64,000 nt of DNA from Candidatus Magasanikiibacteriota bacterium. GTDB lineage: Bacteria; Patescibacteriota; Patescibacteriia; Magasanikbacterales; GWA2-37-8. The translations under genes were made by a program, and so were the position numbers. Below, one piece after another: positions 3,260-47,692 of the stretch (its first letter is position 1; every line of letters begins with the position of its first letter). The stretch is from NCBI GenBank assembly GCA_041678665.1, contig JBAYNU010000002.1, forward strand, positions 5,039-69,038, given 5' to 3'. The notes beneath the pieces were generated by a model. The model worked only from the letters and a program-made list of their open reading frames with translations, ran no database searches and was not told the origin of the DNA.

Positions 3260-3277
3260 AGTTATAATTATTTTATT

Positions 3278-3904
3278 ATGTCTAAAGTTTACGATTCAAT
3301 TTGTTCTCAATGCCGCCGCGCCGGTCAGAAGTTATTTTTAAAAGGAGAGAAGTGTTTAGGGCCAAAATGTCCGATGATTAAAAGAAATTTTATTCCCGGA
3401 CAGCATGGTCCGACCGCCAGAAATAAAAAGTTATCTGGCTACGGCAAACAACTCCGCGAAAAGCAACAAGCCAAAAAAATGTATGGCTTGCGCGAAAAAC
3501 AATTTGCCAATTACGTATCCGAAGCTTCGCGAAAAACCGGTGATACCAGTAAATATTTTGTTACTTATTTGGAATCACGTTTGGACAATGCGGTATTTCG
3601 CATGGGCTTGGTAACGTCTCGTTCAGCTGCGCGCCAATTGGTTAGCCATGGCAATATCACTGTTAACGGTAAAAAAGTAGATATTCCATCTTACCGTGTT
3701 TCCGTCGGAGAAGAGATTGCCCTCAAAGAAAGCATGAAAAGCAGAAAATTGTTTGAAAATATTTTTGAACGACTGTCTAAGATAGAAGCGCCGTCATGGA
3801 TGCATGTTGATGCTAAAAAGGTATCTTTTAAAGTGTTAAATACCCCAACTTTAGATAGCGCGCCATTTAACTCCAAAGCCATCATCGAGTTTTATTCTCG
3901 TTAG
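3278..3904 (+). CDS. rpsD: 30S ribosomal protein S4
   Basis: N-terminal C4 zinc ribbon (CSQCRR...CLGPKCP), S4 domain. Confidence 0.95.
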   Translation: MSKVYDSICSQCRRAGQKLFLKGEKCLGPKCPMIKRNFIPGQHGPTARNKKLSGYGKQLREKQQAKKMYGLREKQFANYVSEASRKTGDTSKYFVTYLESRLDNAVFRMGLVTSRSAARQLVSHGNITVNGKKVDIPSYRVSVGEEIALKESMKSRKLFENIFERLSKIEAPSWMHVDAKKVSFKVLNTPTLDSAPFNSKAIIEFYSR

Positions 3905-4013
3905 TAATTTTCGCTTTTTTGTGGATCAATTTTGTCAATATATCTAAAGATATATACTCATTCGTTCGGAAAAGATTAAACACATTTAATCTTTTCTCTC
4001 ACTTATATCGTAT

Positions 4014-5626: not shown

Positions 5627-6034
5627 ATGACTAAAATAAATAAGAACCCGTCAGTTTTTAGAGCCGTGGGACGACGTAAAACCGCCAGTGCTCGTGTTAA
5701 AATTGACAAAGGCAGTGGTAAAATCATCGTCAACGGCGTAGATTACAAAATATATTTTCCTCATTTTGAGCTGAATGAGTCAGTGTTGGCTCCTTTGAAG
5801 GCGGTAGGAAAAGAAAAAGATCTAGATGTGTCAGCAAAAGTTTCTGGCGGTGGCAAGAAAGGTCAAGCCACTGCTGTTCAACATGGGATTGCGCGTGTTT
5901 TGGTGATTTGGAATGATGAATTTCATAAGACTCTCAAAACACAAGGGTATCTTACTCGCGATCCTAGATCAAAAGAACGAAAGAAATTTGGTCTCAAAAA
6001 AGCCCGACGCGCACCACAGTGGTCGAAGCGGTAA
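5627..6034 (+). CDS. rpsI: 30S ribosomal protein S9
   Basis: C-terminal ...KKARRAPQWSKR S9 signature. Confidence 0.9.
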   Translation: MTKINKNPSVFRAVGRRKTASARVKIDKGSGKIIVNGVDYKIYFPHFELNESVLAPLKAVGKEKDLDVSAKVSGGGKKGQATAVQHGIARVLVIWNDEFHKTLKTQGYLTRDPRSKERKKFGLKKARRAPQWSKR

Positions 6035-6050
6035 AAAATATTTTCAAATT

Positions 6051-6075
6051 CACCCCTTACCAAAGGGGTGTTTTG
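6051..6075 (+). terminator. intrinsic terminator after rpsI
   Basis: CACCCCTT-acca-AAGGGGTG stem followed by TTTT. Confidence 0.6.
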
Positions 6076-6155
6076 ATATTGACATGCGGTTACTTTCGTG
6101 CTACTGTATTTTTGGTTTCTTTCGATACTAACTTTGAAAAATCATGGAGGGTGTT

Positions 6156-6599
6156 ATGAAACAACAGCTGTTGATTCTGACGACGGCAGAGGAGAAGGCT
6201 GATCGGTTGAACCCCTTTCTCGGCTACTTGGCGAGATTCTTTGAGAGGCTGATATTTGCTTACGAAGAAGATGCCGCCAAGATTTCCCTGGCCGAGCGGC
6301 CGGATATGGTGTTATTTTTCTTCTTTGAATCCTCGCCGTACCAGGATCCCGAGTTCGCTCAAGGATGGAAGTGGCATACCATCGACCTGCTGAGGTGGAT
6401 ACGGAAGGGAGAGCAAGGGGAATGGGGACTCCATGTCCCTGTAGCCGTGATTAGGCACGAGGCCGGTCACGACCGGTGGGAAGATCAAATCACGGGAGAA
6501 TTGGGAAACTTTCTTCCCCCCGGGTTTATTCTCACCACCTCCGCTGGAGGGAACACGGCAGAAGAAATTCTTGCCATGCTGAATTCAATCCTCAAATAG
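6156..6599 (+). CDS. hypothetical protein encoded on a GC-rich island (about 50% GC versus under 40% in flanks)
   Basis: ORF 6144..6599. GGAGG SD is 4 nt before the second ATG at 6156. No recognisable family. Flanked by terminators. Confidence 0.5.
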   Translation: MKQQLLILTTAEEKADRLNPFLGYLARFFERLIFAYEEDAAKISLAERPDMVLFFFFESSPYQDPEFAQGWKWHTIDLLRWIRKGEQGEWGLHVPVAVIRHEAGHDRWEDQITGELGNFLPPGFILTTSAGGNTAEEILAMLNSILK

Positions 6600-6623
6600 C
6601 AAGTACACGGTGATTGCCAGCCA

Positions 6624-6651
6624 CCGGGCGTTCATAGCGCCCGGTTTTTTT
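6624..6651 (+). terminator. intrinsic terminator after GC-rich ORF
   Basis: CCGGGCG-ttcata-CGCCCGG perfect 7-bp stem followed by TTTTTTT. Confidence 0.7.
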
Positions 6652-6652
6652 G

Positions 6653-6681
6653 TTGTCAAAATAGCGGAAAAAAGGTATAAT
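6653..6681 (+). promoter_or_regulatory. sigma70-like promoter (TTGTCA-17-TATAAT) 6 nt upstream of the flippase ATG, implying a leaderless or near-leaderless mRNA
   Basis: TTGTCA at 6653-6658, TATAAT at 6676-6681, ATG at 6688. Confidence 0.4.
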
Positions 6682-6687
6682 TTTATC

Positions 6688-8118
6688 ATGTCCTACACCG
6701 TCGCCCAAAACACCTCCTTTCTAACCATTGCTTCGGTTTTACAAAAAGCCATTTCTTTTGTTTATTTTACCATCATCGCACGCCTGATTGGAGTAGAGAA
6801 CACCGGCGTGTATTTTTTTGCCATTGCTTTTACCAGTATTTTTTCCGTGGTGGCGGATTTTGGTTTGGCTTCGGTGCTCACGCGCGAACTGGCCAAAGAC
6901 CAAGGGCGTTCGCAATCGTATATCAATACCATCCTTTGGTCAAAAATTATTTTTGGTTTGGTGGCCTACGCGCTCATAGCGGTGGCCGTCAACATTTTAA
7001 ATTATCCCACTATCCTCAAAGACCTCGTTTACCTGTCCGGCATTACCATGTTTTTTGACAACTTGCACATGGTGTTTTACAGCGTATTTCGAGCGCACCG
7101 CAATTTGGTTTATGAAGCCATCGGGCTGGTCGGATCGCAAGTACTCACTCTCGTTATCGGTACGGTGGCGCTATTTGGCGGGGGAGCACTCTACTGGCTT
7201 ATTTTGGCCTACACCATTCCCGCCATCATCAACGCCGTTTATTCCGGATTTTTCGCGCGCCGCAAATTCGCGTTGCGTTTCAGTTTTTATTTTGACCGCG
7301 CCGTATTCAAATTATTTTTTCTCATGGCCGTGCCGTTTGCCTTAGCCGGCATCATCACACGTCTGTATGCGTACAGCGATTCGCTTATCATGTCCAAATT
7401 GCTTTCCGCCCGAGAGCTGGGGTATTGGAGCGTGCCGTACAAAATCACTTTCGCCTTTCAATTTATCCCTATGGCGTTATCTGCCAGTATTTATCCGGCT
7501 TTTAGCGCGTTTTTCTTACATTCTCCTCATAAAATTTCCGATTTATTCGCCAAATCTTGGCGCTACCTGTTTACTATTGTTTTTCCATTAGTTATTGGCA
7601 TTATTGTTTTGGCCAAGCCGACAATTCATTTACTTTATACCCCAAGCTATAACGCGTCTGTTCCGGTTTTACAAATTTTAGTGGTTGGTTTAGTTTTTAT
7701 TTTTCTTAGTTTTGTTACCGGTGCTTTTCTCAACGCCACCAATCGCCAATCCATTCAGACTGCTTTGATGGCCATCGCTTTAGCCATCAATTTAGCTAGC
7801 AATATTATTTTGATTCCACGTTTTGGAATTATCGGCGCCGCCATCTCCGCTTTAATTAGTAATTTAATTTTGTGGTTAAGCGGGTATATTATCGTTCAAA
7901 AAATAGCCCGTATTAATAGCGGTGAAATTATAAAATATTTTTTACAAACATTTATTCCGGCGGTAGTAATGGGAACGGTGGTATATTATTTGAGTGCGCG
8001 CATCTATTTTATTTGGACCATACCGATAGGAGCGGTGGTATATTTTATATTACTGTTCTTAACCGGTGGAATAAATATTGGATTATTAGTAAAAAAGTTC
8101 AAAGATATTAAGTCTTAA
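6688..8118 (+). CDS. polysaccharide biosynthesis protein / oligosaccharide flippase (MOP/Wzx-like)
   Basis: about 14 TM helices, polysaccharide-biosynthesis-protein family architecture; start chosen at MSYTV (ORF track begins at 6610). Confidence 0.7.
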   Translation: MSYTVAQNTSFLTIASVLQKAISFVYFTIIARLIGVENTGVYFFAIAFTSIFSVVADFGLASVLTRELAKDQGRSQSYINTILWSKIIFGLVAYALIAVAVNILNYPTILKDLVYLSGITMFFDNLHMVFYSVFRAHRNLVYEAIGLVGSQVLTLVIGTVALFGGGALYWLILAYTIPAIINAVYSGFFARRKFALRFSFYFDRAVFKLFFLMAVPFALAGIITRLYAYSDSLIMSKLLSARELGYWSVPYKITFAFQFIPMALSASIYPAFSAFFLHSPHKISDLFAKSWRYLFTIVFPLVIGIIVLAKPTIHLLYTPSYNASVPVLQILVVGLVFIFLSFVTGAFLNATNRQSIQTALMAIALAINLASNIILIPRFGIIGAAISALISNLILWLSGYIIVQKIARINSGEIIKYFLQTFIPAVVMGTVVYYLSARIYFIWTIPIGAVVYFILLFLTGGINIGLLVKKFKDIKS

Positions 8119-46892: not shown

Positions 46893-47183
46893 ATGAAACA
46901 CAACGAAAGAGTCATCAATGCCGTGGTAATAGGGGCATTGATACTGGTATTCCTCCTGTGGTGGGGGCTAGCCAATGACTACGCGTCTTTTAAAAAGATG
47001 TGCGCGTTGTCAGAAGAAGCAGCTTGTCGTGAGGCAGGTTATGCTCCGCCCATCGTATGGAGCATGAATGAGAAAGCGCTCTTTTGCCATGACGACAAAG
47101 GGCTAAAACACCAAATAAAGATTCCAGCCTGCAACTGCAAGTTGGACCCTGGAGCGAAAGAATGCCGCTTCTTGAAAAAGTAA
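46893..47183 (+). CDS. hypothetical small secreted or membrane-anchored Cys-containing protein
   Basis: 96 aa, N-terminal hydrophobic helix, 6 Cys; strong AAGGAG SD; elevated GC. Confidence 0.5.
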   Translation: MKHNERVINAVVIGALILVFLLWWGLANDYASFKKMCALSEEAACREAGYAPPIVWSMNEKALFCHDDKGLKHQIKIPACNCKLDPGAKECRFLKK

Positions 47184-47186
47184 AAC

Positions 47187-47227
47187 AGACCGTGCAATCA
47201 GGGAGGATTGCACGGTCTCTATTTTTA
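47187..47227 (+). terminator. intrinsic terminator (copy 1 of a duplicated 52-nt segment)
   Basis: AGACCGTGCAATC-agggag-GATTGCACGGTCT 13-bp perfect stem followed by TATTTTTAT. Confidence 0.8.
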
Positions 47228-47303: not shown

Positions 47304-47636
47304 ATGAAAAAATATAAATGGGCAGTAGTATATTTATTTTTGGTCTTGCTCTTTTGGCAACTCGGCAATTTATTAAATGCCCACACCGAAAAGCTCAAAG
47401 CAGGTTTCATACTTTCGCAAGAAGCTTTATCGCTCTATTGCTATCATCGCTTCGGCGATGAAAGTGAAAAAGTAATGATAACAATAGGCGACACACAGCT
47501 GGAAAAAAAAGATTATACGATGTGTTTTGTCCCGCGAGAAGGGGCTCTCTACTTTATTGTGAGCCTAAATCAATGTACGAACACGCAGGACTATGACGAC
47601 TGCATGTTCCTCACCGGGGCGGCGGAAGAATTTTGA
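47304..47636 (+). CDS. hypothetical small secreted or membrane-anchored Cys-containing protein
   Basis: 110 aa, N-terminal hydrophobic helix, 4 Cys; AGGAGG SD. Confidence 0.5.
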   Translation: MKKYKWAVVYLFLVLLFWQLGNLLNAHTEKLKAGFILSQEALSLYCYHRFGDESEKVMITIGDTQLEKKDYTMCFVPREGALYFIVSLNQCTNTQDYDDCMFLTGAAEEF

Positions 47637-47650
47637 GCATAGCTTCAAAC

Positions 47651-47692
47651 AGACCGTGCAATCAGGGAGGATTGCACGGTCTCTATTTTTTA
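47651..47692 (+). terminator. intrinsic terminator (copy 2, identical to 47187..47227)
   Basis: same 13-bp stem followed by T-run. Confidence 0.8.

Follow-up and report, generated by a model that had tools for sequence, protein, structure and literature searches.

A probable horizontally imported orphan gene and an adjoining recombination tract at the rpsI-flippase junction of a groundwater Magasanikbacterium

Why does a GC-rich open reading frame (ORF) of no recognizable family lie between a ribosomal operon and a cluster of glycan-synthesis genes in an otherwise AT-rich genome? The question is raised by a 64-kb stretch of contig JBAYNU010000002.1 from a groundwater Magasanikbacterium, a member of the Candidate Phyla Radiation (CPR). 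This whole stretch is referred to below as the window, and the 62 long ORFs within it served as the comparison set. The ORF occupies positions 6156-6599 on the plus strand (NCBI MFA7653575.1 / WCX97_00835) and encodes a product of 147 amino acids (aa; 16.9 kDa, pI 5.0); a second in-frame start, ATG 6144, would yield 151 aa. The gene order around it is rplQ, rplM, rpsI, the orphan ORF, a flippase gene, GT4 glycosyltransferase, GreA and LysRS. A preliminary description of the locus had proposed that the ORF was recently acquired. Our analysis indicates that the island is probably not a native gene but DNA that was imported horizontally, at a site prone to recombination and insertion, and the island was found to extend beyond the ORF itself.

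Analysis of windowed GC and codon usage revealed that the ORF is the strongest outlier in both composition and codon usage among the 62 ORFs and lies outside the range of all the others. The GC content of the ORF, described earlier as roughly 50%, is 0.523, which exceeds 99.7% of all 444-nt windows (the peak over the whole 64 kb is 0.538, for the 444-nt window beginning at 6201), against a mean ORF value of 0.395 (standard deviation 0.039). The GC content at third codon positions (GC3) is 0.618, the top value in the comparison set (mean 0.375, standard deviation 0.061). The synonymous-codon log-score gave z = -5.8 compared with 235 same-size chunks of other genes, none of which scored equally low. 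No paralogue or decayed copy of the ORF was found in any other frame or strand within the window, and a 58-aa antisense ORF had no Pfam match. The flanks had been described as below 40% GC; this was correct for the left flank, which is below or near 40%, but not for the right flank, which remains at 0.45-0.50 up to approximately 7500. With this right-flank GC content and a GC3 of 0.57, the anomaly also takes in the 5' half of the flippase gene.

To compare the junction with its relatives, genomic contexts were collected by exact-protein look-ups (7 contigs), from GTDB species genomes (69 loci) and from JGI metagenomes (80 loci). Hundreds of homologues of the window flippase were found, and the arrangement of rpsI followed by the flippase gene on the same strand was conserved in 100 distinct loci. 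No relative of the orphan ORF was present in any of these 100 loci, and a tblastn search across 157 loci returned the window's own copy only. Empty spacers were identified in L005 (flippase 76% identical, spacer ~62 bp), L002 and L009 (70%, 162 bp), L006 (65%, 106 bp), and L079 and L120 (85% and 72% identical over the matched N-terminal part; ~66-76 bp). In these loci, which are those of the closest relatives with both genes, the short spacer has nothing but the rpsI terminator and a -10 box directly before the flippase ATG. The edges of the insert could be placed against these spacers. On the left, window positions 6035-6074 can be aligned with the terminator region of L006 and L079; on the right, positions 6646-6680, beginning with TTTTTTTG..AAAATAGCGGAAAAA, match the motif TTTTTTTG..AAAAGCGGAAAAA that follows the terminator in L006. 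Since both edges align with contiguous ancestral sequence, the insert spans approximately 6075-6645 (571 bp) and lies in or just after the terminator U-tract. The motif TTTTG is present at each edge of the insert (6071-6075 and 6648-6652) and could be microhomology or chance; no significant terminal repeats were detected beyond it. Deviant composition and absence from the syntenic site in close relatives, two features by which islets and ORFans are recognized, were thus both observed. The proposal of a recently acquired gene survives these comparisons, as no copy occurs in relatives at the rpsI-flippase junction and the GC3 and codon usage of the ORF lie beyond those of the other window ORFs.

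Examination of the right flank revealed a recombination tract in the adjoining gene, which encodes a 476-aa Wzx-like polysaccharide flippase (6688-8118, plus strand; Pfam PF01943 and PF13440). As delimited by the maximum chi-square (max-chi2) method and a GC3 change-point, the tract covers positions 6676-7515 on the plus strand, that is, the -10 region and flippase codons 1 to ~276. The best flippase match was locus L001/L078, to which the tract is 90.3% identical at the nucleotide level compared with 67.6% from 7516 to the stop codon. The max-chi2 breakpoint was located at 7515 (chi2 = 118), and the GC3 change-point at 7456 (0.59 before versus 0.34 after) coincides with it. GC3 is 0.57 over codons 1-270 and 0.33-0.34 over the remaining 3' half. 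At the protein level, the N-terminal 250 residues of the flippase are 95.6% identical to L001 and the C-terminal part 70%; background identities to L001 are 71.5% for the GT4 glycosyltransferase and 74% for GreA. The distance matrices also differed between the two parts of the gene. In the 5' part the window-L001 value was 0.90, and the window-L005 and L001-L005 values were each ~0.75; in the 3' part all three pairs were at ~0.70 (window-L001 0.70, L005 0.69). The L001/L078 lineage has a GC content of 0.457, and L001 genes have a GC3 of 0.49-0.57. The tract GC3 of 0.57 therefore agrees with the L001 lineage rather than with the recipient, which shows that the transfer was into the window genome. 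With a shift in identity, incongruence between the two parts and donor-like composition all present, the segment is a gene-conversion tract. Judged by these identities, the window flippase is chimeric, its N-terminal half being of donor type and its C-terminal half native. The GC-rich island consists of the insert plus the tract, covering ~6075-7515 (~1.44 kb). On the right side at least, this foreign segment was acquired through homologous recombination with a relative of higher GC content. L001 itself was rejected as the donor: it is only 90% identical in the tract, and its upstream DNA is not homologous. The 228 nt upstream of its flippase gene contain a hairpin with a 26-bp stem and unrelated GC-rich DNA that runs off the contig.

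Some observations were made on the comparison loci themselves. The L001 hairpin (119-224), with a near-perfect 26-bp stem, directly precedes the flippase promoter; the 125 nt from 111 to 235 fold with a dG of about -54 kcal/mol. The hairpin matched only spurious microRNA-precursor models in Rfam and may be a miniature inverted-repeat transposable element (MITE)-like element or a bidirectional terminator. Between the flippase and GT4 genes, L001 carries a radical SAM/SPASM gene at 1677-2738, also present in L078, that the window lacks, and the flippase-GT4 gap is a second variable point of the glycan cluster. The flippase of L005 is called 57 aa short; a T run, tatatttttttttgcc, is found around 2380-2400, so that a frameshift near codon 45, or a sequencing error in the homopolymer there, is likely.

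Analysis of the 100 distinct rpsI-flippase loci showed that insertion at this junction is common. The spacer is at most 250 bp in 55 loci and longer in 45, and it exceeds 500 bp in 38 of the latter. Long spacers hold 250-2340 bp of unrelated cargo (L010, L016, L017, L019, L022-L025, L029-L031, L040-L046, L052-L056, L061, L064, L074, L077 and others). The cargo includes a GNAT acetyltransferase, tandem FemAB, QueA, an S51 peptidase, a PEP-utiliser-domain protein, a beta-helix protein and an SDH-type protease, and 12 of 20 cargo proteins had no match in a Pfam scan. The occupants are mutually unrelated save for a few lineage-level families, and blastp and phmmer --max detected no homology between the orphan ORF and other spacer occupants. 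On this comparative evidence, the rpsI-flippase junction is a gene-flux hotspot.

Cargo ORFs of at least 90 aa were enriched in strong Shine-Dalgarno (SD) sites: a strong SD 5-mer precedes 14 of 58 cargo ORFs (24%) compared with 27 of 885 (3%) other ORFs of the same loci (odds ratio 10, P = 2e-8). Several occupants are small and elevated in GC3, including a 127-aa protein in L030 (GC3 0.74 versus a local median of 0.31), a 143-aa protein in L044 (0.66 versus 0.37) and a 97-aa protein in L115 and L123 (0.65 versus 0.26 and 0.47), with similar cases in L043 and L127; the corresponding values for the window ORF are 0.62 and 0.36. These small GC3-rich proteins show no relationship to one another, and membrane proteins are among them. 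Such cases suggest that the junction recurrently captures foreign cassettes, although the evidence is thin in each individual case. A stronger version, that in the SD-poor genomes of Magasanikbacteria and related CPR this junction repeatedly takes in orphan cassettes of ~100-150 aa with elevated GC3 and a strong SD from outside the lineage, is speculative, and we consider it doubtful. Host bacteria of these presumed episymbionts, or their phages, are possible sources. If the stronger version were true, such cassettes would mark host-to-symbiont or phage-to-symbiont gene flow, and some could encode new host-interaction or defence folds. Strong SD sites may flag foreign genes in SD-poor CPR genomes, and in combination with high GC3 may serve as a cheap marker of them. 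A literature search returned nothing on the rpsI-flippase junction, nor on SD or leaderless usage in Magasanikbacteria.

A parallel case was seen in L030, a Magasanikbacterium with a flippase 57% identical to that of the window. Its positions 3277-4000 hold the rpsI terminator, ATATTGACA, GAGGAGG and the 127-aa ORF, followed by a complex hairpin and then a leaderless flippase promoter. The 127-aa protein has no Pfam match and is not homologous to the product of the window ORF. A promoter shared by the two was rejected, since only ATATTGACA is common to their leaders (P = 0.11).

The regulatory signals at the junction were then located. The rpsI gene (5627-6034, plus strand; ribosomal protein S9, Pfam PF00380, E = 5e-46) is the last gene of the conserved ribosomal operon, has a native composition (GC3 0.35) and forms the conserved left flank of the hotspot. 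A scan identified its native intrinsic terminator at 6051-6074 (plus strand), with an 8-bp stem CACCCCTT/AAGGGGTG at 6051-6070 followed by TTTT (dG -14.9 kcal/mol, z = -3.8). The stem can be aligned with the rpsI terminator of L006; the U-tract comprises 4 T in the window versus 7-9 T in relatives. The inserted segment, which is missing in relatives by junction alignment (~571 bp, 6075-6645, plus strand), contains a promoter-like site, a leader, an SD site, the ORF and the stem of its own terminator. The putative promoter, TTGACA-17 nt-TACTGT (6079-6107, plus strand), was read from the sequence; its -35 hexamer (6079-6084) is perfect, and its -10 hexamer matches three of six positions, including T1, A2 and T6. 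The SD, GGAGG at 6146-6150 on the plus strand, lies 5 nt before ATG 6156. This strong site, already pointed out in the preliminary description, is one of two of the GGAGG type among the 62 window ORFs; any SD-like 4-mer within 18 nt of a candidate start was found for 12 ORFs and none for the other 50, and the sequences upstream of window starts are AT-rich. The second terminator (6623-6652, plus strand), also found by the scan, has a 10-bp stem ACCGGGCG../..CGCCCGGT at 6623-6645 followed by 7 T (dG -17.6 kcal/mol, z = -3.5). By hairpin, U-tract and stability relative to shuffled sequences, both hairpins are predicted to be intrinsic (Rho-independent) terminators, in agreement with the bracketing terminators noted earlier.

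Downstream of the second terminator, the scan located the flippase promoter, TTGTCA-17-TATAAT (6653-6681, plus strand), which matches 11 of 12 consensus positions. Its TATAAT (6676-6681) is followed 6 nt on by ATG 6688, and no SD site is present. A -10 box this close to the ATG means that the flippase mRNA is predicted to be leaderless. The earlier report of a separate promoter 6 nt before the next ATG is borne out for the promoter; the ATG is at 6688, so the reported 6689 was off by one. The transcriptional insulation described for the ORF is likewise there in terms of terminators and promoter, but it is not special to this gene and reproduces the ancestral junction layout. In most relatives a -10 box lies within ~12 nt of the flippase ATG; a strict criterion, TAnnnT at 4-9 nt upstream, is matched in 57 of 114 distinct relatives and the others were read by eye, and an SD-like motif precedes the flippase in only 7 of the 114. 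Such comparisons indicate that a leaderless or near-leaderless flippase start is conserved across related loci. Across Magasanikbacteria and neighbouring CPR the flippase -10 is often GGTAAAAT or TATAAT (for example L005 2235-2258, L079 515-536 and L006 4975-5003). The flippase resembles known leaderless bacterial mRNAs in having its ATG 6 nt after TATAAT without an SD, an arrangement kept in relatives. The orphan ORF is unlike them, with a classical leader and SD, and the likeness concerns the neighbouring flippase only.

We next consider the product of the ORF. The earlier statement that it had no recognizable family was upheld by every search. The 147-aa protein had no match to Pfam, NCBIfam, PHROGs or PADLOC profiles at E <=10, and a sequence search of the PDB gave a single match to Tim50 (E = 1.2). 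A word-indexed search of 5.8 billion clustered proteins and an exhaustive phmmer search of 1.84 billion representative proteins returned the protein itself only. Searches of IMG/VR, JGI metagenome contigs, INPHARED phages and PLSDB plasmids (tblastn) gave nothing besides self-matches. By these sequence searches the protein is a true ORFan. As it has no relatives among about 15 billion sequences, any experimental function or fold would be new information. Reading of the sequence by eye, with no predictor run, identified neither an obvious signal peptide nor a long hydrophobic segment. A single-sequence AlphaFold2 model, of low confidence (predicted local distance difference test score (pLDDT) 41), contains four strand-helix units (strands E4-8, E51-58, E96-101 and E125-128; helices H20-30, H65-84, H109-117 and H135-146), and a possible fifth strand was read from the sequence. 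A Foldseek search of this model against the PDB gave only E values above 0.04, the best being a TIR domain (E = 0.047, TM-score 0.41); the non-significant matches were all three-layer alpha/beta sandwiches (TIR, flavodoxin, CheY and Ras-like domains). The model thus hints, as a weak inference, that the product is probably a small acidic cytosolic protein of alternating strands and helices with a three-layer alpha/beta sandwich fold.

In its serial strand-helix units, as seen in the low-confidence model, the protein resembles flavodoxin-like and CheY-like (beta-alpha)5 domains, and its segments 'ERPDMVLFFFF' and 'VPVAVIRH' are reminiscent, by eye only, of receiver strands beta3 and beta4. Unlike the receiver, TIR and flavodoxin families, it has no hidden Markov model (HMM) match at E <=10, and the acidic pocket, Thr/Ser and Lys of receivers are missing, with TT, F, R and T/S at the positions aligned by eye. 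A pseudo-receiver assignment (PF00072) was dropped, given an hhalign probability of 0.4% with a five-sequence receiver profile and no Pfam or NCBIfam match at E <=10. Membership of TIR or anti-phage defence families was likewise not supported, with no PADLOC match and a best Foldseek E of 0.047.

The history that we favour starts from an ancestral junction, common to Magasanikbacteria and related CPR, in which rpsI is followed by its hairpin terminator and a -10 box next to the flippase ATG, implying a leaderless flippase mRNA. Two changes separate the window from this state. The first is the appearance of a 571-bp self-contained expression cassette, with a leader of ~45 nt, between the rpsI terminator and the flippase promoter; the second is the replacement of the adjoining ~830 nt by an allele of a higher-GC relative from the L001/L078 lineage, with a crossover near 7515. 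Both probably arrived together, when homologous recombination brought in DNA of an unsampled Magasanikbacterium of higher GC content whose spacer already held the cassette; the donor lineage would earlier have obtained the cassette from an SD-using, GC-richer source outside the group. The adjacency of the two segments and their similar GC3 favour a single import over two events. The window is SD-poor and four L001 genes all lack an SD site, yet the ORF carries a perfect GGAGG, so the cassette looks foreign to the whole group under a one- or a two-event history. In its present location the ORF would be transcribed from its own TTGACA/TACTGT promoter, and read-through from rpsI may also occur because the terminator U-tract is now 4 nt. 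Translation would start via the SD, and transcription would end at the second hairpin, before the unchanged flippase promoter. The flippase would keep its ancestral leaderless promoter, making the insertion transcriptionally neutral for its neighbours. Such neutrality, together with conserved flanks acting as homology arms, would explain how the junction tolerates and accumulates cargo. The ORF product would be accessory and dispensable, although this is a weak inference, and the ORF may simply have been carried along when the flippase allele was exchanged, without being the selected trait itself.

Several findings weigh against this history or against parts of it. No donor was found, and neither a donor nor homologues elsewhere turned up in the sets searched. 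There are no mobility genes, no tRNA and no clear target-site duplication; the neighbours are S9, the flippase, GT4 and GreA. L001/L078 lack the ORF upstream of the flippase, which leaves adjacency and similar GC3 as the sole grounds for a single event, and the codon fit of the ORF to the L001 table is -0.07 compared with +0.12 for the flippase tract. The -10 hexamer of the ORF promoter is weak and the site falls under the scan threshold. The length of the ORF is by itself barely beyond chance for a 571-nt segment of 52% GC: a stop-free run of at least 153 codons occurred in 3.75% of dinucleotide shuffles (P about 0.04), so length alone is weak coding evidence. The fold statement is weak, drawing as it does on a model with a pLDDT of 41. 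Finally, the European Nucleotide Archive (ENA) contig that carries the locus is 100% identical to the window and is not an independent sample.

The alternative that survives best is that two independent events occurred: an illegitimate insertion of the cassette into the rpsI terminator U-tract and a separate gene conversion of the flippase 5' half from an L001-like relative. This is possible, but we consider it rather unlikely. It gains from the observation that positions 6646-6675, between the two segments, look native to the clade, with AAAATAGCGGAAAAA resembling L006 and L081, a further point against a single import, and that alignable similarity to L001 begins only at 6676. The missing ORF in L001 and the poor fit of the ORF codons to the L001-lineage table also agree with it, and the hotspot takes many independent insertions. 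However, it would need two rare events within 30 nt of each other, both lifting GC3 to ~0.6, and the AAAAGCGG motif is conserved widely enough to have occurred in the donor too.

A second alternative accepts the import and holds that the insert is non-functional foreign DNA, in which the 147-codon ORF is fortuitous or dead and makes no protein. The shuffle result above is consistent with this, the lack of homologues means that purifying selection cannot be shown, and the confidence of the AlphaFold2 model is low. Several features of the ORF argue for coding instead. GC by codon position is 0.57/0.38/0.62 (chi2 = 19.4, P = 6e-5), GGAGG stands at the ideal distance from the initial ATG of the frame, 24 nt separate the stop codon from the terminator, the amino-acid composition of the product is ordinary and strands and helices alternate regularly. 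From this combination, 6156-6599 is judged to be a protein-coding gene now, or to have been one recently, with a small chance kept for a dead or fortuitous ORF.

The third alternative, that the assembler spliced in ~1.4 kb of a co-occurring higher-GC relative, has only a slim probability. L001 and other relatives do belong to one and the same series of samples (ERZ2724xxxx and Ga017237x-8x records), conserved stretches of related strains, of which the flippase 5' end is one, can be joined into chimeras, and the identical ENA contig offers no independent support. But the assembly would have to switch twice, at points 1.4 kb from each other, and the left switch would fall in an intergenic terminator of low conservation, in which long k-mers are unlikely to be shared. 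Four pipelines (an NCBI metagenome-assembled genome, ENA MEGAHIT, JGI/IMG and Logan) have recorded the identical ORF beside the same neighbours, and the second organism that would be needed, carrying the ORF and a flippase 5' half 90% identical to L001, was not seen as a contig of its own in the collections searched.

GC islands in AT-rich genomes are commonly structured non-coding RNA genes, and the folding energy of 6108-6652 (z = -2.95) would be in keeping with such a gene in place of a protein gene. This reading is very improbable here. Most of the folding signal is the terminator hairpin; once it is left out, the region has a z of -1.84 and a sparse centroid structure. The whole window has no Rfam match at gathering score, with a best sub-threshold match in the region at E >=0.35; ARAGORN detected no tRNA or tmRNA in the window; and the codon periodicity and SD-ATG layout point to coding. 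Lastly, the ORF could be a native core gene particular to the lineage, its odd composition being due to amino-acid content or to high expression. This is hardly credible: although the ORF has a strong SD and adjoins the ribosomal operon, which is highly expressed, it is missing in all relatives examined, it deviates mainly at third codon positions (GC3 0.62 versus 0.375) rather than those determined by amino acids, and the window's ribosomal protein genes have a GC3 of 0.31-0.38 and no SD, so that the presence/absence and GC3 tests refute this reading.

Under the favoured history of import at a hotspot, the event is of an ordinary kind, a horizontally acquired ORFan islet on a homologous-recombination tract at a glycan-locus hotspot, and taken alone it is a routine acquired orphan gene. 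The ORF resembles ORFan islets acquired by horizontal gene transfer in its atypical GC3 and codons, unique distribution, short length, lack of homologues and intergenic insertion between a terminator and a promoter. It differs from them in lacking an integrase, tRNA, transposase and flanking repeats, and entry appears to have been via flanking homology. A classical mobile genomic island was rejected, as no integrase or transposase, tRNA target or flanking repeats were found. An integron-type origin was judged unlikely from reading of the sequence and from the ORF having its own promoter; attC core sites were not searched systematically.

The locus can also be compared with glycan-locus exchange in cultivated pathogens, as at the Escherichia coli O-antigen locus (galF-gnd) and the pneumococcal capsule locus (dexB-aliA). 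The window shares with them an atypical segment at the start of a glycan cluster, conserved flanking genes, a crossover within a gene that produces a mosaic, and cargo that varies between lineages. It differs in scale, since the exchange involves a 1.4-kb tract, half a flippase instead of an entire cluster and one orphan gene that has no recognizable role in glycan synthesis, and in setting, since the organism is an uncultured CPR bacterium; the background identity of ~70% makes the exchange inter-species rather than within-species. The chimeric Wzx-like flippase implies that surface-glycan genes are diversified here by the same kind of exchange as in cultivated pathogens. The locus documents, at base-pair resolution, homologous recombination between lineages of uncultured CPR bacteria, and the rpsI-flippase junction, available in ~100 loci, is a convenient place to survey accessory genes of Magasanikbacteria.

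A separate observation was made elsewhere in the window. A perfect 44-nt direct repeat (47183-47226 and 47647-47690), consisting of a terminator-like hairpin ACCGTGCAATC...GATTGCACGGT and a T-run, flanks a 110-aa ORF at 47304-47636 on the plus strand. The product has an N-terminal hydrophobic segment and no Pfam match, and the ORF carries the other GGAGG SD of the window. Apart from the orphan ORF, it has one of the two lowest codon-usage scores, and it sits between genes for an AddA-like helicase-nuclease and an ABC transporter. The segment 47183-47690 looks like a second foreign cassette of promoter, SD, ORF and terminator.

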